Source of the DNA: a virus
Taxonomy: Duplodnaviria > Caudoviricetes
IMG/VR virus record: IMGVR_UViG_3300021400_001091
Location: 1 to 64,000 of that record
Direction: 5' to 3' (one strand)
DNA: 64,000 nucleotides
The translations under genes and the position numbers were made by a program. Shown piece by piece: positions 4,723-53,721 of this stretch. How positions within the stretch are numbered: the stretch's first letter is position 1; each line of letters starts with the position of its first letter. Under the pieces are notes generated by a model. It searched no databases. It had not been told where the DNA came from and saw nothing but the letters and a program-made list of their open reading frames with translations.

Positions 4723-5166
4723 ATGGCTAAAGCAATTTACTTCGATATGGACGGCACAATCGCCAACTTCTACGGCGTAGAGAATTGGTTGGAAGATTTA
4801 ACCAATTCCAATCCTCGCCCTTATGCACAGGCGCGCCCACTCGTCAACATGAACGTACTTGCAAGGCGGTTAAACCGTTTGCAGAAGATGGGGTATAAAA
4901 TCGGTATTGTGTCATGGTTAGCAAAAAATTCCAATCCAGATTTTGACAGTGCCGTTACCACCGAAAAAATCAAGTGGTTAAAAACCCATCTCCATTCCGT
5001 CAAGTTCGATGATATTAAAATCGTACCATACGGAACGCCGAAGTCGGAAGTGGTAGAATATGGAAACGGAATCCTTTTCGACGACGAAGAACCAAATAGA
5101 AAAAATTGGAAAGGCGTAGCATACGACGAAAGTAAAATTATGGAAGTTCTCGGGGCGGTCGCATAG
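4723..5166 (+). CDS. HAD-superfamily 5'(3')-nucleotidase-like phosphatase
   Basis: N-terminal FDMDGT motif and C-terminal LFDD motif; start reset to RBS. Confidence 0.75.
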   Translation: MAKAIYFDMDGTIANFYGVENWLEDLTNSNPRPYAQARPLVNMNVLARRLNRLQKMGYKIGIVSWLAKNSNPDFDSAVTTEKIKWLKTHLHSVKFDDIKIVPYGTPKSEVVEYGNGILFDDEEPNRKNWKGVAYDESKIMEVLGAVA

Positions 5167-5564
5167 GCCGTCCCAGTTTTTGGAAGTTCATAAATTGTCT
5201 AAATTGTCTGACAATTTCGCCGTTCGATTGTTAATTTTTTAACAATCGACAAGGCGCAGTTTTCAGAATTGTCTGACAATTTCATCGTGGCTTGTTAAAA
5301 AATTAACAATCCAAATTGTCAGAAAACTTTACCTATTGCCGAGTTAGCATATGCTAACTTAAATTGTCAGAAAACTTACCCTATTAGTAGTTCCACTCCC
5401 ATTCTACAATATTATAATACCATGGCGCAAGTAGTTTGTCAATACTTTTTTCAAAAAAAAGAAAAAAATATTTTTCTAAAAAGGGTTGACAAATACCCCA
5501 AAATCCGTATAATAAAGATGTAAGGTAAATCAAGCGGTTGCCAACGGCAAAGAAAGGAAACCAA

Positions 5565-12435: not shown

Positions 12436-12876
12436 TTACCAACTCACATAAACATCGACAATTCCACTGGTCGGACAAACATCGTAAACCTTTGCTGGCC
12501 CGAAAGGTGTAGACAAAACAGTCCCTTGCGCATAGTCACAGGAAGCTACACAAATGTAACCATCACCATCACAAACATATCCATTCCCATCGACATGGCG
12601 GCCAGGGATATTAAGTCCTCCACCAGGAAGAACTTTCTCGCTATACCAGGTGTATTGAATACCGTTAGCATAGATAACTCCTTGTGTACGAAACTCTGAA
12701 GGAGATACATAACCTCCAGACTGAACTTCAGCGGCCTCTTCTTCTGCAGCCTTTTCAGCTGCAATTTCAGCTTGCCTTTGTACTTCTTTCTCTAAAGCTT
12801 CTTCTGATAAGTCTGTCATAGTCGCACAAAATGGCAATATTAAAGACATAGCAATAACAAAAGCTTTTATACCCAT
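12436..12876 (-). CDS. Secreted 3D/RlpA-like (double-psi barrel) cell-wall protein
   Basis: Signal peptide; YICVAS..GTVLSTPFG..VYD..VDVYVSW pattern; related to 18323-18751. Confidence 0.5.
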   Translation of the reverse strand: MGIKAFVIAMSLILPFCATMTDLSEEALEKEVQRQAEIAAEKAAEEEAAEVQSGGYVSPSEFRTQGVIYANGIQYTWYSEKVLPGGGLNIPGRHVDGNGYVCDGDGYICVASCDYAQGTVLSTPFGPAKVYDVCPTSGIVDVYVSW

Positions 12877-13046
12877 ACATAACCCTCCTATTATAAATAT
12901 ATTATATCATATTTTTATGGAAAAATCAAATTTTAGGTGTTGTTATGTAGTTGGCGCGAGGCCGTAATTTCCTATAATAAAACCGCCGCAAACTTACGTC
13001 TACGGCGGAGAAAGGAGGGACTTTGGGTACCAATATTGCACCCATG

Positions 13047-13127
13047 TGGTGGAGATGGCGAGAATCGAACTCGCGTCCAAGACGTTCACTTCGGGTTTAC
13101 CGTCCCGTCGAAACCTTTCTCATCCCC
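13047..13127 (-). ncRNA. ssrA: Mini-tmRNA: tRNA-like domain only, no mRNA/tag domain
   Basis: GGGGAUG..AGGUUUCGAC 5' end; GGAC-GCGAG-UUCGAUU-CUCGC-CAUCUCC-ACCA 3' end; G3:U70; short closing hairpin in place of the MLD. Confidence 0.8.
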
Positions 13128-13136
13128 ATAAACTGA

Positions 13137-13343
13137 CTAAGGCAGCTTAGTCAGAAGGCTCAACATTTCCCGAGAATTGCGAACTGTTTCATCGTATTCA
13201 TCGAGAACTTCATTAGCCTGAACGAGTCGCTTTTCCAACTCAATTAACCAGTCGGATAGCGGCCCAGCAAGGTCGTTATCAAAGATTGTGTTGATGTCCT
13301 TAATAATTTCCTCATTACTGGTCATTACTTCTATGAGTGTCAT
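13137..13343 (-). CDS. Hypothetical protein
   Basis: ORF with AGGAGG RBS inside the tRNA operon. Confidence 0.7.
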   Translation of the reverse strand: MTLIEVMTSNEEIIKDINTIFDNDLAGPLSDWLIELEKRLVQANEVLDEYDETVRNSREMLSLLTKLP

Positions 13344-13368: not shown

Positions 13369-13452
13369 TGGTGCGGGAGAAGGGACTCGAACCCTTACGC
13401 ACACGGCGCCAGTTCCTAAGACTGGTGCGGCTGCCAATTACGCCACTCCCGC
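13369..13452 (-). tRNA. tRNA-Leu(TAG)
   Basis: Cloverleaf; CCAGT-CT TAG GA-ACTGG; long variable arm; CCA. Confidence 0.95.
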
Positions 13453-13460
13453 ATATTAAC

Positions 13461-13539
13461 TGGAGGACAGAGTGAGATTTGAACTCACGAATACACGGGT
13501 TGCAACCGTGCCCAATAGACCGAACTCTGGCATCTGTCC
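13461..13539 (-). tRNA. tRNA-Cys(GCA)
   Basis: CACGG-TT GCA AC-CCGTG; U73; CCA. Confidence 0.9.
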
Positions 13540-13542
13540 ATA

Positions 13543-13619
13543 TGGTGACGCTACGCGGACTCGAACCGCGACTCTTTAGGATGAAAACCTAATGTGTTAG
13601 CCTGTTGCACCATAGCGCC
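13543..13619 (-). tRNA. tRNA-Glu(TTC)
   Basis: TTAGG-TT TTC AT-CCTAA; CCA. Confidence 0.9.
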
Positions 13620-13622
13620 ATA

Positions 13623-13767
13623 AACTGTTGGTGAGGATTTGCACCTCACATAAGTCGATATCTACTCAAGTCGGAGGGAGTTGAACCCATAGGCACTTCC
13701 CGAAGGTTTTTAATCCTATGCCTGTCGCCTGACCATCCTCGCGTCTACCTATTCCGCCACAACAGTT
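13623..13767 (-). ncRNA. Oversized tRNA-like RNA (about 145 nt) with a nested insert
   Basis: AACUGUUG/CAACAGUU closing stem; Leu-type D arm UGGCGGAAUAGGUAGACGC; T-like arm GUGAGG-UGCAAAU-CCUCAC; about 90-nt insert. Confidence 0.6.
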
Positions 13768-13770
13768 AAT

Positions 13771-13847
13771 TGGTGGATCGACCGGGGCTCGAACCCGGAA
13801 CCTCCTGCGTGCAAAGCAGGCGCTCTCCCAATTAGAGCTACCAACCC
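13771..13847 (-). tRNA. tRNA-Ala(TGC)
   Basis: G3:U70; CCTGC-TT TGC AC-GCAGG; CCA. Confidence 0.95.
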
Positions 13848-13922
13848 ACAAAATATCAGTTTAAGCGTGCAACTGAAAAGCAGCAGAGATTTTTTATCCG
13901 GATATAGTAATCTGCCAACTAA

Positions 13923-14000
13923 TGGTCGGGGTGATAGGATTTGAACCTACGGCCTTCCGGTCCCAAACCGGACGCTCTAGCCAAGCTGAGCTACACCCCG
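13923..14000 (-). tRNA. tRNA-Pro(TGG)
   Basis: Canonical cloverleaf; CCA. Confidence 0.95.
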
Positions 14001-14021
14001 ATAAAAGGAGGAAAATCCTCC

Positions 14022-14222
14022 TTAATCTTCATATGCATCCTGCCAAGCGAAATTGAGACGGTCCTTTAATTCCTCAATATCTTCATGGAGTTCAGCCAAC
14101 CTATCCCATTTAGGGTCATTAGGTTCCCAGTTAAGACAATCAGTAGAAAAATCGGTATAAGTCTGCCGCGCAGCTTCTAATCTCTTCTCCAGCATGGGGA
14201 TGCTTTCATAATCACGATACAT
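14022..14222 (-). CDS. Hypothetical protein
   Basis: ORF with RBS. Confidence 0.7.
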   Translation of the reverse strand: MYRDYESIPMLEKRLEAARQTYTDFSTDCLNWEPNDPKWDRLAELHEDIEELKDRLNFAWQDAYED

Positions 14223-14235
14223 TGTAGTTTCCTTT

Positions 14236-14769
14236 CTAAAAAGCCTTCAAACCTTCATCAAAATCATTTACTACACAGAATGTCCAAAGCTCTTCTGTCC
14301 ACTTCTCCCAAAACTCTCTCAATTCCTTTTCGTGGAAGTAGATATAGTCGGCGGCCCAGGCTGTAGCAACACATTCGTCAAGGATATAGTAATATGCAGT
14401 ACAATACTTAGCATATTCTTCCTCATCCTCACAACACACAGTCAATGCTTCAATGAGTTCTTTCGTTTCATCAAACTCTGCCTGCTCTGTGTCAGACCAC
14501 AGCCGCCAAGTTTCATGATGACCAATTTCGTGAAGAAGACTCCAAATGAAAACGTTATCGGTAATTCTTGCGGCTTCGGGATGGTTTTCACAAATGAATT
14601 TCATAAAAGTTTCATCAGCAACGGCACTCATCAACAGTGAATACTGAAGTCTCTCAGTTTCATAGCAATAATTAAAATCCATACCGAGCTCCGCAGTACA
14701 CCCAAATTGAGATACAAAATCGTTAACAACCTTATCCAGTTGTTCTTTTCCTTTTAACGCATAAAACAT
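14236..14769 (-). CDS. Putative zincin-like metalloprotein
   Basis: LLHEIGHH (HExxH) with a downstream E. Confidence 0.55.
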   Translation of the reverse strand: MFYALKGKEQLDKVVNDFVSQFGCTAELGMDFNYCYETERLQYSLLMSAVADETFMKFICENHPEAARITDNVFIWSLLHEIGHHETWRLWSDTEQAEFDETKELIEALTVCCEDEEEYAKYCTAYYYILDECVATAWAADYIYFHEKELREFWEKWTEELWTFCVVNDFDEGLKAF

Positions 14770-14828
14770 AATAAAATCTCCCTTCTTTCTATATATATTA
14801 TATAAAAAATTTAGGATTTTTTCAAGTT

Positions 14829-15200
14829 TTACTTTTCAAGAAAACTAGCCACCATTTCAATATGGTCTTCAATTTGAACTATATTCTGGCAGGAAGTTCT
14901 CACTACTATCCCATCCTTGTCAAAGCCTTCGATTTCTTTTGAAAGAGGAAACTTTTTATAAACCATAATTGTCTTGCCGCCCTTCAAATTCACAACATCA
15001 CCAATAAATACTTCAGTGAAGATTGTATTGGACTTGCGCTCGGTCTGGATTTCATCTACAAAATCGTAGATATCCTCGTCATATAGAATGTCCATAATGT
15101 CTGTTGTCCCGAAAAGATCAAGGCAAGCAGTTTCGTTGCGGCTAAGCCACTTTAAACAATCAATTAGTTCGTTAAAGCTTTCTCTTTCTTCTGCTTTCAT
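14829..15200 (-). CDS. Hypothetical protein
   Basis: ORF with GGAG RBS. Confidence 0.7.
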   Translation of the reverse strand: MKAEERESFNELIDCLKWLSRNETACLDLFGTTDIMDILYDEDIYDFVDEIQTERKSNTIFTEVFIGDVVNLKGGKTIMVYKKFPLSKEIEGFDKDGIVVRTSCQNIVQIEDHIEMVASFLEK

Positions 15201-15210
15201 AGTATTTCTC

Positions 15211-15705
15211 CTATTTACTTAAACGATCTGCAATAGAGCTTGCAGCAAAAGAGTCTGGTTTAATCTCACATTCTAAACCTGTAGCATGAACCCAACCTAC
15301 TAATCCATCAACCAAGGTTGCAGTTTTATTCCTGGGCGCATTACCTACATCGAGATGAATACAGACAGGAACTTCGCTTACGAATTCCGCATACTGCGGC
15401 TGGTCGAGTTCGTCAAGAAGACGGGTAGCCACAATTAGTGAATCACCAGTTTCAATTTCTAATTTCTCTCTTAAGCTTTCAATTAAAGGTAGATACTTCT
15501 TTTTATAGAAAAAAATACCGCCATGACCTTCACAGACAATCGTAATTACCGTTACGACCTTCGTATCATGACGATTTTGACTATCAGTACCCACGATTAA
15601 GCTGAAGGGCATACCATATTTTTTTCTCTCATTATAAAAAAGAAGTAACTTTGAAGGGATTTCTTCTAAGTCGATTTCCCCGTAAGTCATACTGTGAAAC
15701 TTCAT
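15211..15705 (-). CDS. RNase H-like YkuK (DUF458) family protein
   Basis: IVGTDSQ, IHLDVG and IKPDSFAASSIADR motifs. Confidence 0.75.
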   Translation of the reverse strand: MKFHSMTYGEIDLEEIPSKLLLFYNERKKYGMPFSLIVGTDSQNRHDTKVVTVITIVCEGHGGIFFYKKKYLPLIESLREKLEIETGDSLIVATRLLDELDQPQYAEFVSEVPVCIHLDVGNAPRNKTATLVDGLVGWVHATGLECEIKPDSFAASSIADRLSK

Positions 15706-15787
15706 AATTACTTCCTCTGAAAAGCCGCTGTACGAGTTAACTCGCCTATTTGTGCATTTGGCCGCACGTCGGTGGCGACAGAATTAA

Positions 15788-15863
15788 TGGAGCCTGAAGA
15801 GGGACTCGAACCCCCGACCTATTGATTACAAATCAATTGCACTACCAGCTGTGCTATTCAGGC
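15788..15863 (-). tRNA. tRNA-Thr(TGT)
   Basis: ATTGA-TT TGT AA-TCAAT; CCA. Confidence 0.95.
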
Positions 15864-16048
15864 GCATATGCGGGAAGCTTTAGTTTTTTCCATGGACAGG
15901 TACTATATGCTTCCCTGGGAATACCTGCACTCCCAGATTGTTTCTTGATGAGGTTTTCTAATATAGTTTATCCTTCCAAGAAACTTACAAAAGGCCTGTC
16001 GATTTGTGCATCGGTAGACGTCCGGCCGAGAGGCCCGACAGGAACTAA

Positions 16049-16119
16049 TACCCTGGGCAAGAATCGAACTTGCGACCTGCAATATAATTGCTTCTTCTCT
16101 TCCACTGAGTTACCAGGAT
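16049..16119 (-). pseudogene. tRNA-like element with an aberrant anticodon arm (pseudo-tRNA)
   Basis: Intact acceptor, D and T arms (GCAAG-TTCGATT-CTTGC), but the anticodon arm GCAAT-TAT-ATTGC lacks a 7-nt loop; no CCA. Confidence 0.65.
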
Positions 16120-16126
16120 ATATAAT

Positions 16127-16200
16127 TGGCTACCCCTGTTGGAGTCGAACCAACACATACGGGATCAAAACCCGTTGCGCTGCCATTACGCTAAGGGGCA
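16127..16200 (-). tRNA. tRNA-Gln(TTG)
   Basis: ACGGG-TT TTG AT-CCCGT; U1:A72; CCA. Confidence 0.93.
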
Positions 16201-16205
16201 TCAAC

Positions 16206-16279
16206 TGGAGCAGTATACGAGGTTCGAACTCGTGACGTCTGCTTGGAAGGCAGAAATGTTACCACTACACCAATACTGC
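16206..16279 (-). tRNA. tRNA-Gly(TCC)
   Basis: TCTGC-CT TCC AA-GCAGA; U73; CCA. Confidence 0.93.
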
Positions 16280-16284
16280 ACATA

Positions 16285-16670
16285 ATATAGCGTATTATAC
16301 GCATACGCCAGACGGATTTAAGGTAATCACACCATGGGCGGTTTTCTATGCTGGATAACCGCAAACCAGGGTATGAGGCTTTTCTACCGCGCGCCACTCC
16401 TTACGCGCCTTTGATGGAAAGTTCGCTCTTTTCCGCGCCATCAGCGAATGGGTCACTCCTCCCGCGTACAGGGTCTCTCTTAGTCGAGCGATTCAACTTT
16501 TCCTTACCTTTGTTTGCTCCCCATGGATCCCCGGCTCCCCTTTATGTCCACAATTCATTCGGTCATGACTCCGATACACAGGTACTGTTGGTCATCATTC
16601 CTTCGATGGATGGTTCGTCATCAGCAAACTCTCTCAATACATTGGGTACCTATATTGAGTTTTGATTGAT
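16285..16670 (-). ncRNA. About 390-nt structured non-coding RNA candidate between tRNA-Leu and tRNA-Gly
   Basis: GC-richer and non-coding; several helices (CUCAAUAU/GUAUUGAG, UGAUGG/CCAUCA, GCGGUU/AACCGC) and a possible AGGUAC/GUACCU pseudoknot. Confidence 0.5.
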
Positions 16671-16677
16671 AAGCTTA

Positions 16678-16764
16678 TGGTGCGAGCGACCGGAGTCGAA
16701 CCGGTACGTCCGTGAGGACATTGGATTTTAAGTCCAAGGCGTCTGCCTATTCCGCCACGCTCGC
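16678..16764 (-). tRNA. tRNA-Leu(TAA)
   Basis: TTGGA-CT TAA AA-TCCAA; long variable arm; CCA. Confidence 0.95.
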
Positions 16765-16857
16765 ATTTCAATCCCGATTTCCCCTCGGGATAACAGAGGA
16801 TAGTTTAACCGACAACTATCAAGAGAGTTCTGATTTATCCTCAGGCTCTTAAAGATG

Positions 16858-16933
16858 TGGCGCTCCAAGTAGGACTCGAACCTACGACCCAGCGGTTAAC
16901 AGCCGCTTGCTCTACCAACTGAGCTATCAGAGC
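16858..16933 (-). tRNA. tRNA-Asn(GTT)
   Basis: AGCGG-CT GTT AA-CCGCT; CCA. Confidence 0.95.
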
Positions 16934-17198
16934 ATAATGGCGAGTTTACTTTGCCTCTTTTGGTATACCGTTTGCCACTCATTCATGCCACATATCACAT
17001 ATTGTGCCGGTGGTAGTTTAACTCGCAAATCCATGATAACGGTTTAAGGCGTCATTATTATTCCCTTTAAAGGCGGGTCGCATCAGCCTATAATAGCGAC
17101 TTCCTTTATTTTAAAGAGATACTTCCCTACCGATGCATCGTTTAACGGCCGCCACTTTGTTCGTGACCCTCCGTATAGGTTTTCTCTCTTCATTGGCT

Positions 17199-17274
17199 TG
17201 GTTGCAGGAGAAGGATTCGAACCTTCGACTTCAAGGTTATGAGCCTTGATTGCTAACCTCTGCATCATCCTGCG
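17199..17274 (-). tRNA. tRNA-Met(CAT), initiator-like
   Basis: C1:A72 mismatch; CAAGG-CT CAT AA-CCTTG; CCA. Confidence 0.88.
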
Positions 17275-17357
17275 ATGACGGGATTAAGTTTTTCCTTAAT
17301 CCCTTATCTTCTATATATATTATATAAAAAATTTCAGATTTTTTCAAGTTTTCACTT

Positions 17358-18311
17358 TTAAATGACTGTGAACTTTTTATCGAAAACTTTCTTGGCACCA
17401 TTGCCATCCCAACACCAACATCTATAGTAGTAAGTTCCCTTTGGAAGAGTATTGAAATGAAGTCTTAATCCCACTTTATTTCCTATATTAAATGACCAAT
17501 CTCCTATTGATAAGTCCATCTTGCGTGAAGTCCACTTCTTTCCTGTCTTATCTACAATACCGATTTCAACTCGGCGCATATAGTTGGTGCTTCTAATTGT
17601 ACCATTACAAACGAAAGCTGTACCTTTCTTAACCTTTGTTGGGTAAGCCATATTTTTAAGAGTGTACTTGCTTGCCCACACAAGCTTCTTATTAACCTGT
17701 GTTGCTATATACTTCATTTTACTCTTTAAATAAGGGCCTGGGCAAGCTGTAGCTGCAAACCAACAATGGAGCGTTAAATTTCCAGTTGTGTCTCCTGTGT
17801 AATTAAGTTTCCGAATATTATTTCTCTTACAAATATCAACGCATAAATCAATGAGCTTTGAAAGAGCCTTATCTGAAACTGGCCATTGACCTCCAATTGC
17901 ACTGTTACTAACTTCAATAGTAACTGCGCGCTGGTCATTGTCCCAGCTAGAGCTAGCCCACGATCTATTCTTTTCATCAACATATAATCCGACTCGTCCA
18001 TTTGAATCAATTCCGTAGTTGCTTGACGCTTGGCGCGCGGCCGATGCGAATATTGATCCGCATTGTTCGACGCTTAAAATTCCAGCCATGTGGTGAATTG
18101 TAATGCGGTCGATTTTATGCGTACGCAGGCCAGAATGATTTGGACTCCGCTTTACATAGTCTACGAGTTTGGAATTTGTATAGGTTGGAATAGTAACTGC
18201 TCCCCTCGATTTAGCTAACCACCCATAAAATCGCCCCATTTTTGGCTCGGCGCCACGTCCATTAGACAATTCTTTTAATTCCTCTTCTGTTAATTCTCTT
18301 ACTTCCTCCAT
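17358..18311 (-). CDS. N-acetylmuramoyl-L-alanine amidase (Amidase_2 type)
   Basis: ITIHHMAG, ASSNYGI, IEV and HCWFAATACPG motifs; start reset to MEEVREL after AGGAGG. Confidence 0.85.
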   Translation of the reverse strand: MEEVRELTEEELKELSNGRGAEPKMGRFYGWLAKSRGAVTIPTYTNSKLVDYVKRSPNHSGLRTHKIDRITIHHMAGILSVEQCGSIFASAARQASSNYGIDSNGRVGLYVDEKNRSWASSSWDNDQRAVTIEVSNSAIGGQWPVSDKALSKLIDLCVDICKRNNIRKLNYTGDTTGNLTLHCWFAATACPGPYLKSKMKYIATQVNKKLVWASKYTLKNMAYPTKVKKGTAFVCNGTIRSTNYMRRVEIGIVDKTGKKWTSRKMDLSIGDWSFNIGNKVGLRLHFNTLPKGTYYYRCWCWDGNGAKKVFDKKFTVI

Positions 18312-18322
18312 AATTCCTCCTA

Positions 18323-18751
18323 TTAGATTGCCCACGTAGTGGCTATATCTAATTGATATTCTCCATAGTAAAAATAGCCTGTGTCTAATACAATGCCGGG
18401 ACCAAGACTGGTTTGCACCTTTGTTCCTCTTGGCCGAACAGGTAAATAACCTCCACAAATTACATAATCTCCTGTACCATCATTCCACATATGGACACCA
18501 TCCCAGCGAATCCAATGGTAACCTTCAAAACCTAAATCATAGATAAACTGAATAAAGCTATCCATAGGCATATTATACCAGGTTTCTTTACCGCTTGGAC
18601 CATCGTTAACGCCTTTTTCAGCCGTTAAAACTGGCCCATCCCAGTAATATTCTGCTTCAGTAGTAACGGTCTCTTGAACAACTGGTTGCGCCGGTTCTTC
18701 AATTGGCTGCAACATAATCATTCCGAGTGCTATTGCTATTTCTGCAATCAT
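18323..18751 (-). CDS. Secreted 3D/RlpA-like cell-wall protein
   Basis: N-terminal hydrophobic segment; PRGTKVQTSLGPGIVLDTG..LDIATTW. Confidence 0.5.
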   Translation of the reverse strand: MIAEIAIALGMIMLQPIEEPAQPVVQETVTTEAEYYWDGPVLTAEKGVNDGPSGKETWYNMPMDSFIQFIYDLGFEGYHWIRWDGVHMWNDGTGDYVICGGYLPVRPRGTKVQTSLGPGIVLDTGYFYYGEYQLDIATTWAI

Positions 18752-18850
18752 ATAAACCTCCTTTTATATATGAAAATAAGCCGAGTCGAAATACTTGGCT
18801 CATTTTAATATTCATATGGCGCGAGCAGATAGAGTTAAACTCTAATCCTT

Positions 18851-19108
18851 TTACAGGGGTTTTATTTGCTTAACAATCCCATCAACCATAAACTCTGGAA
18901 TGTGTTTAAAAAGACAATCACCAGTGTCAGGACCAAAATAACCTTTGACCAAAATGTCATATGATACATCTCCATTATCTTGAAAAGTTCCCCAAGCATT
19001 AACAGTATAAATAGAACCAATCAGTTCTTCAATTTTTTGAGTTTTATAATCTGTTAAAACTTGAAATTTTACTATATCTCCATCTACATATTTCGGTTTA
19101 CCTAACAC
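18851..19108 (-). CDS. Hypothetical protein
   Basis: GTG start after AGGAG RBS. Confidence 0.7.
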   Translation of the reverse strand: MLGKPKYVDGDIVKFQVLTDYKTQKIEELIGSIYTVNAWGTFQDNGDVSYDILVKGYFGPDTGDCLFKHIPEFMVDGIVKQIKPL

Positions 19109-19131
19109 TTTAATTCTCCTTTTAAAATTAT

Positions 19132-19207
19132 TGGCGTACCTGGAGGGGATCGAACCCCCGACACACGGCTTAGAAGGCCGTTGTTCTATCCGCTGAACTA
19201 CAGGTAC
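19132..19207 (-). tRNA. tRNA-Arg(TCT)
   Basis: ACGGC-CT TCT AA-GCCGT; CCA. Confidence 0.95.
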
Positions 19208-19211
19208 AAAT

Positions 19212-19381
19212 TGGTGGGAGCAGCGGAGTTCTACCGCACTTTCCGACCTCCGCGGCCGGTGGTCTTACATAGAAGATAAAGTTTGCAACCTTTAAATTCT
19301 ACAAAATTATTTCTTTGCCATTTTCAATAGCTGTATTGTACACTACAACTAAGGGAAATATTTATTTAACCTATCACTCCC
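19212..19381 (-). ncRNA. 170-nt tRNA/tmRNA-like RNA ending in ACCA
   Basis: GGGAGUG/UGCUCCC acceptor plus ACCA; T-like arm GCGG-UAGAACU-CCGC; UUUCC/GGAAA helix enclosing hairpins; abuts the tRNA-Lys CCA. Confidence 0.6.
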
Positions 19382-19455
19382 TGGTGCGCCAACCCAGAGT
19401 TGAACTGGGATAAACAGATTAAAAGTCTGCGAGTCTACCCTTGACCTATTGGCGC
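19382..19455 (-). tRNA. tRNA-Lys(TTT)
   Basis: GCAGA-CT TTT AA-TCTGT; CCA. Confidence 0.9.
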
Positions 19456-19458
19456 ATA

Positions 19459-19533
19459 TGGCGACCCATGGGAGAGTTGAACTCCCGTCTTCGGCGTGAC
19501 AAGCCGATATAATAACCGTTATACTAATGAGCC
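19459..19533 (-). tRNA. tRNA-Asp(GTC)
   Basis: TCGGC-TT GTC AC-GCCGA; G73; CCA. Confidence 0.93.
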
Positions 19534-19536
19534 GAA

Positions 19537-19612
19537 TGGTTGGGAAGGTGGGGTTTGAACCCACGACCAGAGACTTATAAGGTCCCCACTCTCACCACTG
19601 AGTTACTTCCCA
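19537..19612 (-). tRNA. tRNA-Ile(TAT)
   Basis: GGGAC-CT TAT AA-GTCTC; A73; CCA. Confidence 0.88.
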
Positions 19613-19615
19613 ATA

Positions 19616-19702
19616 TGGCGGCGTGTCAGAGGCTCGAACTCTGAAGGCTTTTACACCCAACGGTTTTCAAGACCGCCCGACTACCAATTATCACAACACG
19701 CC
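19616..19702 (-). tRNA. tRNA-Ser(TGA)
   Basis: GCGGT-CT TGA AA-ACCGT; long variable arm; G73; CCA. Confidence 0.93.
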
Positions 19703-19703
19703 G

Positions 19704-19787
19704 CGGAAGGAGAGGGGATCGAACCCTCGCAACCTCTCGGTTGAACGGTTTAGCAAACCGCTGCAGTACCTCTATGCTTACCCCTCC
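19704..19787 (-). tRNA. tRNA-Ser(GCT)
   Basis: GCGGT-TT GCT AA-ACCGT; long variable arm; CCA not encoded. Confidence 0.9.
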
Positions 19788-22560: not shown

Positions 22561-23183
22561 AAAACCCTTAAATAAATATATACCTAAGTGACTTTCACCA
22601 TACTCCATACTACTTTCAAGTATATTCAGTCAATAGGGAGACAAGTCCGAAGACCAAGGAGCGACCTTGACCTAACCTGCCCCAGCTCGAGATCTAGAGC
22701 CATCATCCTATATGGGATTGATTACCCACAACTTTCACCCACCTTACGGCATAAGATTAGAAGGAACGGTGCTTCGCGCCTACTTTCCTTAGATAAACTT
22801 TTATCTTCTGTGTCTTGTCGATTTGAGCTACTCGTACGCGACTCACGTAGGTCTTATACACAGATTTCTCTGCTTCACAACAAAAGGAATTATTGGCTTT
22901 ACCAAGGTTTGAAACAGTCGCCGGCTAATCCCTAACTTGGCTTCTTCTCCACAGAAGCGTCTATTACTTCCCCGACCCACATGCTACCTTTACTTGCAAT
23001 AGTAGAAGTGCTACGACTTAGGTTTGGGGATTTAACCACTCCACCATAGGAATCGCTTCTCTATGGAACAGAGCTACTCATAAGTATCCTTACTTTATAA
23101 CTCTGACCTATTCATCGCACCTCAGCCTACTGGTTCAGTAGTTCTACACTGAGTTCTTAGTTATATATTTATTTAAGGGTTTT
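22561..23183 (-). ncRNA. 623-nt large ornate ncRNA (ROOL-like candidate) closed by a 28-bp terminal stem
   Basis: 22561-22588 and 23156-23183 are inverted repeats (27/28 bp); many internal hairpins (CCAUAG/CUAUGG, GCAGA-GAAA-UCUGU, GUGGG/CCCAU); no credible ORF; own promoter. Confidence 0.7.
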
Positions 23184-23190
23184 TCAAGGT

Positions 23191-23244
23191 TCACGCACTC
23201 TGCGTTTACACGGGCTTGTGACCGTCCTTGGCCGCATTACGCAA
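23191..23244 (-). ncRNA. Twister self-cleaving ribozyme (type P1)
   Basis: UUGCG-UAA-UGCG-GC-CAAGG-ACGG-UCAC-AA-GC-CCGU-GUAAA-CGCA-GA-GUG-CGUGA. P1, P2, P4 and both pseudoknots pair; predicted cut between U23239 and A23238. Confidence 0.88.
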
Positions 23245-51867: not shown

Positions 51868-53721
51868 ATGAGTTATACAGCTAAAGATATTGAAACTTTA
51901 AGCTTTCGAGATGCAGTTCGAGAGCGTGTTGCCATGTATATGGGCAGCGCAGACAACCAGGGTGTGCTTCAGTGCGTTCGAGAAATCATTACCAACTCTA
52001 TCGACGAAGCCACAATGGGATATGGAAACTTAATAATTGTAGAGCTAGACAAAGACAACCTCGTAACTGTAACAGATGAAGCAAGAGGTGTTCCTTTTGG
52101 TATTAGAGAAGATGGAACAGAAGCTTTAGAGGCCGTTTATACAATGCCGCATACTGGTGGTAAATTTAACGAAAAAGTTTATCAGAATGTAGCTGGTATG
52201 AATGGAATTGGCTCAAAAGGCGTAGCTTTATCTTCCTCTTTCTTCCAGGCGGAGTCTTTCCGTGATGGCCAGCGCGCCGTATTAACTTTGAAAGACGGAA
52301 TTAAGGAATCATTTGAAGTCCATGAAGAAAAAAATAGCAGAACTGGTACGATTGTACGGTTTATACCAGATTCTAAAGTATATAATCTCGAGCCAATAAA
52401 GATTGACTTTAAAGATTTAAAAGAAATGTGTAAGAATTGGTCGTATTTGACCAAAGGAGTTAAGTTCCATTTAATCGACCATACAACTGGTGAGAAAGTC
52501 GAATACTATTCGAAAAATGGAATTTTAGATTTCCTTAAAGATTCAATTACAAAACCAATTCATAAAACACCACTTTATATAAGCGTTGAAGAAGATGGGA
52601 TTGAATGTGAGGTTGCTATGCAGTGGGCGGCCGACCGTTCCGAACATTGGTACGTATTTACTAATGGCCTTGCTAATCCAGAGGGCGGCACTTCGTTAAC
52701 TGGTACGAAAACTGCTCTTACAAATTTCTTCAAAAAACAACTCAAAGGAGAATTCACTCCTGAGGTAGCTCGGTCTGGTCTCTTTTACGTTATTAACTGC
52801 AAAGTACCAAATCCGTCTTTTGCAAACCAGACAAAGACAAAAGTCAACAATCCGGAACTCCGAGGACTATGCCAGAGAGCGACCGGTCAGATGTTGGAGG
52901 ACTACTCCAGGAGATATACAAGTGAGTTTGATCAGATTTTAGAGCTTCTTACAAAGGAACTGAAGGCAGAACGAGCAGCAGAAAGGGCCCGGCGCCAAGT
53001 ACTTGAAGCCTCTAAAGAAATCGAAAAGAATCAAAAGAAAAAAGTCTTTGCTAGCGATAAGCTAAAGGACGCAGAGTTTCTCGGTCCAAGTGCTACACTT
53101 CTTATCGTAGAAGGAAATTCTGCTATGGGTGGTATGGCGCAGGCTAGAGACTATACCAAATATGGTATCCTTGCTATTCGTGGTAAGATTATTAACTGTT
53201 TGTCAAATCCAGAGGAAAAGATTTTTCAGAATGAAGAAATCAAACTTCTTTTAAGTGCGATGAATATTGTGCCAGGTAAGTACAATGCATCGAAGTTACG
53301 TTATGGACGTATCGCAATCTGTACTGATGCAGACTCCGATGGGTCTCATATCGGACTTCTAATAATGGCAGCATTACAATATCTAGCACCAAAGTTCATC
53401 GAAGAAGGCAGATTATGCTGGCTTCGTTCCCCTCTTTATATTGAGGAATATAAAGGGAATGAGATTTACTATTTCACAGATGAAGAGTTTAATGCCGTAA
53501 GACATAAGATTAAAGGTGAAGTAACTCGTGCAAAGGGACTTGGTGAACTCTCTGCAGATACGGCGCGGGCTTCAATGTTTTCTTCAACCTATCAGAGAAT
53601 GGATGTTTTGAAACCAACACCACAATCAATTGACTTACTTTATGAATTGATGGGTACAGATGTTGAGCCGAGACGTAACTTCATCATGAAGAATGTGGAC
53701 TTCAGTACGATAAGAGAATGA
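51868..53721 (+). CDS. gyrB: Type IIA topoisomerase B subunit (GyrB/ParE-like)
   Basis: GHKL motifs EIITNSIDE, HTGGKF, GMNGIG; TOPRIM motifs VEGNSA, IRGKIIN, TDADSDGSHI; KGLGE. Confidence 0.92.
   Translation: MSYTAKDIETLSFRDAVRERVAMYMGSADNQGVLQCVREIITNSIDEATMGYGNLIIVELDKDNLVTVTDEARGVPFGIREDGTEALEAVYTMPHTGGKFNEKVYQNVAGMNGIGSKGVALSSSFFQAESFRDGQRAVLTLKDGIKESFEVHEEKNSRTGTIVRFIPDSKVYNLEPIKIDFKDLKEMCKNWSYLTKGVKFHLIDHTTGEKVEYYSKNGILDFLKDSITKPIHKTPLYISVEEDGIECEVAMQWAADRSEHWYVFTNGLANPEGGTSLTGTKTALTNFFKKQLKGEFTPEVARSGLFYVINCKVPNPSFANQTKTKVNNPELRGLCQRATGQMLEDYSRRYTSEFDQILELLTKELKAERAAERARRQVLEASKEIEKNQKKKVFASDKLKDAEFLGPSATLLIVEGNSAMGGMAQARDYTKYGILAIRGKIINCLSNPEEKIFQNEEIKLLLSAMNIVPGKYNASKLRYGRIAICTDADSDGSHIGLLIMAALQYLAPKFIEEGRLCWLRSPLYIEEYKGNEIYYFTDEEFNAVRHKIKGEVTRAKGLGELSADTARASMFSSTYQRMDVLKPTPQSIDLLYELMGTDVEPRRNFIMKNVDFSTIRE

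Follow-up and report, generated by a model that had tools for sequence, protein, structure and literature searches.

The tmRNA-SmpB system is the main ribosome-rescue and protein quality control pathway of bacteria and a drug target. The locus described here raises the question of whether a phage can carry a real tmRNA gene reduced to its tRNA-like domain (TLD) and, if so, what such an RNA would do in the infected cell. We have analyzed a window of 64,000 nucleotides that is part of a 96.5-kb linear IMG/VR virus record with a CheckV completeness of 82%. Its marker proteins (topoisomerase II subunits, a DnaB-like helicase, amidase endolysins, an ATP-dependent ligase and a tail protein of 2170 aa) are those of a large tailed phage. 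It is an uncultured ruminant-gut phage with a G+C content of about 36% and no close cultured relative, the closest cultured topoisomerase match being ~33% identical. DNA of this phage or of near relatives was present in animal-gut metagenomes of several studies, with no RNA run among those listed, and four metagenome DNA runs from animal gut contained, as contigs, related strains together with other mini-tmRNA-like variants. An exact 35-nt search of viral contigs gave no near-identical copies. Using megablast and blastn against 50,697 phage records, the matches were limited to tRNAs and to the T-arm/acceptor end of full tmRNAs, and the two BLAST loci that we inspected (a Stenotrophomonas phage and Xanthomonas phage JGB6) were permuted two-piece genes.

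The gene is located at 13047-13127 on the minus strand and has 81 nt with the CCA encoded. The acceptor stem has 7 bp; its 5' strand GGGGAUG (13121-13127) provides G3 of the G3:U70 pair, and its 3' strand CAUCUCC is followed by the discriminator A73 and the CCA (13047-13057). The D-loop AGAAAGGUUUCGAC (13107-13120) is unpaired, ends in GGUUUCGAC and, with 14 nt, equals in length positions 8-21 of E. coli. Helix 2a has 6 bp, formed by GGGACG (13101-13106) and CGUCUU (13079-13084), a pairing also found in relatives. These strands are separated by only 16 nt, the cap GUAAACCCGAAGUGAA (13085-13100), which stands in place of the pseudoknots, the tag ORF and the remainder of helix 2. The GGAC linker (13075-13078) and the T arm GCGAG-UUCGAUU-CUCGC, with a 5-bp stem (13058-13074), complete the molecule. 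The elements of the SmpB elbow are there, namely the D-loop ending ...GGNUUCGAC with the equivalents of U17 and G19, which are SmpB contacts, and the linker with the equivalent of A334, part of the pocket for the SmpB Trp (roles from PMC8363625), although position 15 is U here and E. coli has A at this place in the pocket. The original prediction, made from the letters of the window, had transcribed this strand in exact agreement with the sequence, and the alanine-identity nucleotides (G3:U70, A73), the SmpB-contact nucleotides and the 16-nt element joining the strands of helix 2 that it described are all seen. Folded as a single sequence, the RNA was no more stable than shuffles (z -0.69), and the D-loop was mispaired in the minimum free energy structure.

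An array of 17 tRNA genes, detected by ARAGORN and by Rfam tRNA matches, is found upstream on the same strand (13369-19787, minus). At 39 nt past the CCA end, a strong hairpin of 11 pairs, 7 of them G-C, followed by the T-run TTTTATTATA (12983-13008, minus strand) resembles an intrinsic terminator, so that the mini-tmRNA closes the tRNA gene cluster. The gene is probably co-transcribed with the array. A 68-aa ORF just upstream (13137-13343) had no Pfam family and no homologue in the relatives.

The Rfam tmRNA model RF00023 matched the segment over its positions 1-374 with 71.8 bits (gathering 47, E 5.6e-26), and in the alignment at 13047-13127 a total of 306 central model positions were replaced by 12 nt. 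R1, a covariance model that we made from the lineage of the window phage, scored 81.7 bits. A search with tmRNA models had been proposed with precisely this outcome in mind, both ends matched and the middle deleted, and the claim of an intact tRNA-like domain missing the entire mRNA domain is thereby borne out. The segment was the sole tmRNA match above cut-off in the 96.5-kb record. No full-length tmRNA and no SmpB were found in this whole record, which extends the earlier remark that the window holds no smpB gene. Permuted two-piece tmRNAs were also considered and rejected, because the order of the parts is the standard one from 5' to 3' and the corresponding model, RF04321, reached 23.7 bits (gathering 47) over the 3' piece alone. 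The model match, together with the comparisons below, confirms that 13047-13127 can be taken as a real gene for a tag-less, TLD-only tmRNA, here called mini-tmRNA, and its conservation with covariation in relatives puts the locus far beyond chance.

We have examined the lineage of the phage to find out how the gene is conserved. One of the matches to the loose pattern described in the next paragraph, L049 (in the 99-kb record G001), had a topoisomerase II with 76% amino-acid identity to that of the window. A second pattern based on the shared cap, TTCGAC-N4-9-AAACCCRAAGTG, led to further loci; in L192, L194 and L195 the ligase was 58-62% identical to that of the window and another neighbouring ORF was in common. 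A search for related loci with two neighbouring proteins (a 600-aa ORF and the ligase) gave no confirmed relative. The nine lineage copies have 80-83 nt and the cap UUAAACCCRAAGUGGACU (the window has GUAAACCCGAAGUGAA), and paired substitutions set them apart in helix 2a and the T stem, while G3:U70 was present in 9/9. Overall, 96.7% of the cells were paired and 11/17 pairs were compensatory. In 500 shuffles neither the paired fraction nor the covariation score was ever as high as observed, and the count of compensatory pairs was attained in 1/500, with 45-53% of cells paired in slid controls. Conserved homologs in related phages, which had been named as a check, do therefore exist with the same architecture. 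As to full-length tmRNA, none was found in the lineage relatives examined, so the full-length genes with random deletions that decay should have left are not what these relatives carry. SmpB was not found in a further five carrier records, of which two are 100% complete; in four of these the mini form alone exceeded the cut-off for tmRNA, and in the fifth it scored 40 bits, just below. This data indicate that the reduced form is maintained by selection and not by random decay.

The family extends well beyond this lineage. The loose pattern TTCGAC-N15-45-GGACGNNNGTTCRANTC, in which neither the acceptor stem nor helix 2a was constrained, gave matches in at least 119 viral contigs. Among the matches listed, 90 had complete acceptor and T stems, and these reduced to 68 unique sequences of 67-94 nt once one false positive was taken out (69 with the window copy). 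In all 69, that is, among the matches listed and the window, G1:C72, G2:C71, G3:U70 and A73 were invariant, while acceptor positions 4-7 and the T stem varied with compensation. Since the acceptor stem was left free in the pattern, this invariance was not imposed by the search. Helix 2a positions 1-5, counted by anchoring in the same 69 sequences (matches listed), were paired in 87-99% of them, with every Watson-Crick type represented. A plain MAFFT alignment of the 69 copies (A1) misplaced the 5' ends and helix 2a, and anchored counting and a CM-based alignment were used instead. The latter (A3) contains the 84 matches of R1 in the retrieved loci, of which about 78 extend from end to end. In A3, 98.6% of the cells were paired, with compensatory change at 15/17 pairs and a covariation score of 0.73 versus 0.16 in shuffles, and slid controls were 50-59% paired. 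For helix 2a the values were 96.6% paired and 5/5 pairs compensatory, and for the T stem 100% and 4/5. Actually, A3 is fitted to the R1 model, but the anchored count of helix 2a does not depend on it and agrees.

The carriers are very different phages, in which the gene mostly stands alone. Among the matches listed, a tRNA gene was found within 500 nt of 10/68 copies, always on the same strand, and 51/68 loci had no tRNA; the gene is therefore kept for its own sake and not as a passenger of tRNA arrays. ARAGORN misses 65/68 of these listed copies; the gene is thus invisible to annotation that relies on this program, and surveys of phage tmRNAs made in this way undercount. Judging from the pattern and model matches, the family is common in phages but mostly unannotated. 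On the side of the bacteria, among 150 sampled Clostridia genomes the mini form appeared in one only, as three paralogues, and the other match reported in that genome was its ordinary full-length tmRNA. With one carrier in 150, these genomes give no host assignment.

What could such an RNA do? The G3:U70 pair makes tmRNA a substrate of AlaRS, SmpB binds the elbow of D-loop and variable loop with its Trp in the A15/U17/A334 pocket and with G19 being essential, and EF-Tu brings the charged complex to the A site (PMC8363625). A message-less tmRNA fragment with SmpB and EF-Tu also binds the ribosome, according to a structure cited in the same paper. The equivalents of U17, G19 and A334 and all the alanine determinants are present in the window RNA, and from them we infer charging by host AlaRS and binding by host SmpB; the host protein is the presumed binder because the phage encodes none. 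The mini-tmRNA would be transcribed at the end of the phage tRNA and non-coding RNA unit, trimmed by the tRNA-processing enzymes of the host, charged with alanine through G3:U70 and A73, and bound by host SmpB at the D-loop/GGAC elbow. EF-Tu could subsequently bring the complex to ribosomes that have stalled on broken mRNAs. The mini-tmRNA would be a rival of host tmRNA both for SmpB and for empty A sites, and no ssrA degradation tag would be added in the process, as the RNA has no resume codon, tag or stop codon. The net outcome in the infected cell would be that trans-translation tagging is suppressed or short-circuited. Our preferred reading, to which we assign a probability of about 0.55, is therefore the one that these determinants suggest: a functional competitor of host tmRNA, dependent on host SmpB and chargeable with alanine, which would suppress ssrA tagging.

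There is prior evidence of a similar situation. The tmRNA of Mycobacterium phage DS6A, described as 'TLD only', has already been published (PMC4131195; tmRNA Website tmID 11587), so that the statement of the original prediction that tag-less tmRNAs were known only from some protist mitochondria does not hold. For E. coli, strong inhibition of the endogenous tmRNA by the DS6A TLD is reported (Mao et al. 2009, cited in PMC4131195 and PMC11915505), perhaps by titration of SmpB, in the account of these two papers. The functions that had been proposed for the window RNA, SmpB sequestration or the transfer of one alanine and no tag, match this published idea and seem reasonable by analogy. The competitor reading has direct support in the identity and architecture of the gene, in the selection on its structure and alanine identity, in the lack of a phage SmpB and in the kinship with DS6A. 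It is, on the other hand, a prediction from sequence that the RNA is expressed, charged and bound by SmpB and that it affects the host, and the function attributed to the window RNA is deduced from conserved determinants and from the one published experiment on a homologue. The alanine-identity set is invariant while nearly all else covaries, which argues that alanine charging is under selection. As a pure SmpB sponge needs no charging, ribosome entry probably belongs to the mechanism. Titration of SmpB alone may suffice, and then the strict conservation of alanine identity would be only partly explained. As for the gain to the phage, one may conjecture that it spares phage proteins made from cleaved mRNAs, counters defences that cut RNA, or hinders rival phages that need tmRNA.

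Among the alternatives, a productive rescue that adds no tag is the one that survives best, although we consider it unlikely. The alanyl-mini-tmRNA with SmpB would enter the stalled ribosome, the chain would gain one alanine and no degron, and either drop-off with Pth or an alternative rescue factor would then release it. The phage would benefit when its mRNAs or tRNAs are cut, since ribosomes would be recycled and proteins would stay untagged and stable. The invariant alanine identity with A73, the tRNA-like T arm and the encoded CCA exceed the needs of SmpB titration and speak for such a role, as does the position of the gene with the 17-tRNA array, a translation-support module. In the same way, the tmRNAs of mitochondria and plastids that have no CDS, retained together with SmpB, are thought to help with incomplete mRNAs (PMC11915505). 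However, there is no known mechanism of release for a peptidyl-Ala-TLD on a ribosome with an empty A site, and the sole experiment on an RNA of this kind, as cited in PMC4131195, gave inhibition and not rescue. Nothing in our data separates tag-less rescue from the competitor model.

Phage tRNAs can replace cleaved host tRNAs. By analogy, the mini-tmRNA might be a bait or decoy directed not at SmpB but at other host factors, such as defence nucleases that cleave tRNA or tmRNA, or the SmpB-like sensor domains of defence systems. The location in a phage tRNA array, the exact copying of the ends of host-type tmRNA, and the spread of mostly lone genes over very different phages that we found among the matches listed would all fit. 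We rate this possibility as quite improbable nonetheless: neither a nuclease nor a sensor against the tmRNA TLD was identified here, the loci examined had no linked defence or anti-defence gene, and the proposal is purely speculative.

A different kind of explanation comes from the RNA genes in the vicinity. The window contains a ROOL RNA (22570-23177, minus strand; RF03087, 337.1 bits) and, 14 nt upstream of it, a twister-P1-like element (23192-23243, minus strand) that with 54.6 bits and E 8.9e-12 in RF03160 falls below the Rfam cut-off (gathering 67.2). ROOL, a known neighbour of phage tRNA islands, forms a nanocage whose function is unknown (PMC5737381; bioRxiv 10.1101/2024.12.08.627333), and tmRNA goes unmentioned in the preprint (bioRxiv 10.1101/2024.12.08.627333). 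In six relatives we found on one strand the order twister-P1-like element, tRNA-Met(CAU), mini-tmRNA and ROOL, except that the tRNA-Met was not found in L198; their twister-like elements had 36-56 bits, under the cut-off of 67.2. ROOL was 24-790 nt downstream of the mini-tmRNA in relatives, with the tightest gaps at 24-38 nt, and the tRNA-Met was at most ~600 nt from the mini-tmRNA in 8/9 lineage copies, the exception being that of the window. What is new here is thus this conserved RNA operon of the lineage, as read from the gene order: putative twister-like ribozyme, tRNA-Met, mini-tmRNA and ROOL. The order in the window differs. The twister-like element abuts ROOL, and the tRNA-Met (17199-17274) and the mini-tmRNA follow further down the same strand, the latter at 9.4 kb from ROOL. 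The operon being different and the mini-tmRNA kept, the gene has survived a rearrangement. Next to the ~68 other mini-tmRNAs (matches listed) ROOL was not found with an HMM built from the lineage, the sensitivity of which is limited for divergent ROOL. The linkage would then be specific to the window lineage, and it could be plain co-transcription.

The mini-tmRNA might, from this arrangement, be an RNA-processing handle, providing RNase P/RNase Z punctuation notably at the 5' end of ROOL, or a physical partner of the ROOL nanocage. We think it very unlikely. The operon of the six relatives with its short gaps speaks for it, and so does the window itself, where the mini-tmRNA has moved away and the twister-like ribozyme is placed directly against ROOL. 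Nevertheless, any tRNA could punctuate, and the conserved tmRNA-specific D-loop, GGAC and G3:U70 would be left unexplained. Besides, the window copy has been kept in spite of its distance to ROOL, no ROOL was detected by the lineage HMM at the ~68 other loci (matches listed), and there is none near the DS6A copy. With a similarly small probability, the mini-tmRNA could be the working part of a non-coding RNA module (twister-like ribozyme, tRNA-Met, mini-tmRNA, ROOL and tRNA array) that takes over or protects host ribosomes. Mini-tmRNA and ROOL would then act jointly on stalled ribosomes or SmpB; the cages of ROOL might, for instance, hold ribosomal particles or the complex of TLD and SmpB. If true, an RNA to which no function has been attached, ROOL, would become tied to ribosome rescue. 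In any case, its linkage to the twister-like element and to tRNA-Met offers a concrete genomic setting for probing ROOL function.

The origin of the mini form bears on whether it could be a neutral relic, in which case a chance deletion would have removed the middle of a phage tmRNA and the remainder would now be drifting. The 32 nt at the 3' end of the window RNA are identical to those of full-length tmRNAs (341-412 nt) from 59 bacterial species, among which the record titles place 39 in the Bacillota/Mycoplasmatota, and the 5' ends of these tmRNAs, which are of Clostridia type, also read GGGGAUG...GGUUUCGAC. A host among the Bacillota is a guess that we make just from this end, shared and widely distributed, and from ROOL. 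The motif RAA(N0-2)CY, located 4-10 nt past UUCGAC, was found in 27/68 minis (matches listed) and in 21/49 full-length tmRNAs, with about 2-4 in shuffles. From the shared ends and from this motif after helix 2a, the mini form looks like a tmRNA with the interior deleted just past the base of helix 2. A cap that retains a motif which full-length tmRNAs have just after helix 2a fits an internal deletion and, to that extent, a relic. Drift is already disfavoured, however, and seems to us highly improbable, given that nine diverged relatives share the 80-83-nt design, the cap, compensatory substitutions and invariant identity nucleotides, that a full-length copy appears in no relative examined, and that the gene outlasted the rearrangement of the operon.

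The gene ssrA is a frequent integration site of phages and islands, which carry its 3' end. Although this and the tRNA-like T arm and acceptor stem might suggest an ordinary tRNA or a piece of ssrA kept as an attachment site (attP), both are refuted by the anatomy: the two gene ends are present and paired with each other, as the original prediction had held against an attachment-site remnant, a search of the 96.5-kb record gave no tyrosine integrase (PF00589), the D stem is lacking, the central arm of 6 bp carries a 16-nt loop instead of a 7-nt anticodon loop, ARAGORN calls neither tRNA nor tmRNA at the locus, and the overlapping tRNA-clan matches score below tmRNA, so that the segment does not score as an ordinary tRNA.

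A natural RNA with only the end that binds SmpB and AlaRS, present in many unrelated phages, suggests that phages routinely tamper with ribosome rescue. So far DS6A alone has been studied, in no host but a heterologous one. The argument for selection on charging goes past the published idea of SmpB titration and is directly testable. The result for this one locus is a confirmation and not a novelty, and the model matches support its identity as a TLD-only tmRNA, of a kind that is published but under-annotated.

Known systems allow a more precise placement. A database paper from 2025 contains 79 phage tmRNAs and 9 'standard, no CDS' sequences (PMC11915505), and in the literature searched we found, besides reports of the Williams laboratory, nothing on mini, TLD-only or truncated phage tmRNA. 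The closest of the known relatives is the DS6A element, unannotated in its record, which we placed at JN698994 28478-28560 and which R1 matches at 53.6 bits. Like the window RNA, it has a 7-bp acceptor with G3:U70 and A73, an unpaired D-loop ending in CGAC, a helix 2a of 5-6 bp, a cap and a T arm, in this order. The cap is in both cases short and A-rich with a small hairpin, there is neither a tag ORF nor pseudoknots, and the T arm is the same (GCGAG-UUCGAUU-CUCGC). Both match R1 and also RF00023 end to end with the middle deleted. On the basis of this shared design, the window RNA belongs to the published kind. The differences are in the detail. DS6A has GGUGGUCGAC and GCAC where the window has GGUUUCGAC and GGAC; its cap has 20 nt (ACGAAAACCGCACGCGGUAC, a type that recurs in many metagenomic copies) versus 16 nt; and its CCA is not encoded, whereas that of the window is. 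With RF00023 it scores 43.2 bits, below the Rfam cut-off, versus 71.8 bits. Its copy is solitary, has 69% G+C and is that of an actinophage, while the window copy ends a tRNA array in a phage of about 36% G+C from an unrelated lineage and with an unrelated presumed host.

Full-length bacterial tmRNAs (RF00023; for example those of Clostridia MAGs, with 341-412 nt) share with the window RNA the 5' GGGGAUG...GGUUUCGAC, helix 2a and the motif that follows, as well as GGAC, the T arm, the acceptor 3' strand and ACCA. Compared to them, the window RNA is missing about 280-330 nt that include the remainder of helix 2, the four pseudoknots, the resume codon, the tag ORF and the stop codon, and it therefore cannot template a tag or terminate translation. 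The full tmRNAs carried by phages (Stenotrophomonas Menderavirus phages, Xanthomonas phage JGB6 and Methylophilales phage Melnitz; PMC9004378) are often located beside tRNA genes, share the T-arm and acceptor sequence with the window RNA and include permuted two-piece forms. They keep the tag ORF (in the permuted Stenotrophomonas phage locus, in a coding piece), of which the window RNA keeps nothing. The tmRNAs without CDS of jakobid mitochondria and Mallomonadaceae plastids likewise have little beyond the TLD and no tag frame, and they are presumed to work with an SmpB encoded elsewhere (PMC11915505), as we propose for the window RNA. Nevertheless, they are usually permuted (RF02544) and vertically inherited, while the phage RNA has the standard order and would act in a cell that already has a complete tmRNA. 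Finally, the TLD fragments prepared in the laboratory (T. thermophilus, as cited in PMC8363625) are essentially the same molecule, a TLD with a capped helix 2a. Those fragments were engineered and have neither evolutionary history nor biological role, whereas the window RNA is natural.

A set of non-coding RNA genes keeps a conserved order in the phage lineage, forming an operon in which a twister-P1-like element is followed by tRNA-Met(CAU), the mini-tmRNA and ROOL RNA. We located this operon in relatives of the window phage at L049 (1831-2999), L192 (3239-4706), L194 (6099-7902), L195 (11798-13202), L197 (1106-3535) and L198 (2976-4960; no tRNA-Met found). The twister-P1-like elements of the lineage scored 36-56 bits, none of them reaching Rfam's threshold of 67.2. 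The window has its twister-like element and ROOL side by side at 22570-23243 (minus strand), 14 nt separating the element (23192-23243) from ROOL downstream, and the tRNA-Met and mini-tmRNA are shifted further down the strand, away from ROOL. The operon order in the lineage, together with this adjacency, suggests that the ROOL 5' end is set by a ribozyme or else by tRNA-type processing.

Three nucleotides past the encoded CCA of the window's mini-tmRNA, and ahead of the terminator-like hairpin (12983-13008), starts an imperfect 6-bp hairpin, GGGUGC...GGUACCC (13025-13043, minus strand), possibly serving in 3' processing or stabilisation. A short way downstream of the terminator, on the same strand, lies a 146-aa ORF (12436-12876) with no Pfam family. 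Sister phage G001 has two homologous copies of this ORF (41-42% identity), both within its tRNA region (L189, 3174-3395 and 8705-8977).

On a single viral contig (L080), 3.5 kb separates two genes for mini-tmRNAs (1562-1638 and 5108-5183, minus strand), scoring 51.9 and 39.0 bits with R1, the covariance model of the lineage. One of the sampled Clostridia genomes, G050, contains three paralogues inside 36 kb (L213, L215 and L216; contig C1, 2620936-2657109, minus strand) with near-identical flanks, and this trio may belong to a prophage or to a mobile element that is repeated there. One paralogue is intact (69.1 bits with R1), GAAC replacing GGAC. The other two are degenerate, one having UUCAUC for UUCGAC; in one the acceptor 3' strand is also broken.

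Among known phages, Xanthomonas phage JGB6 (OQ436456.1, about 52650-52780) has an unannotated acceptor piece, apparently from a permuted two-piece tmRNA, and an opposite-strand CDS annotated 'hypothetical protein' overlaps this piece. The permuted tmRNA is also unannotated in several Stenotrophomonas Menderavirus records.
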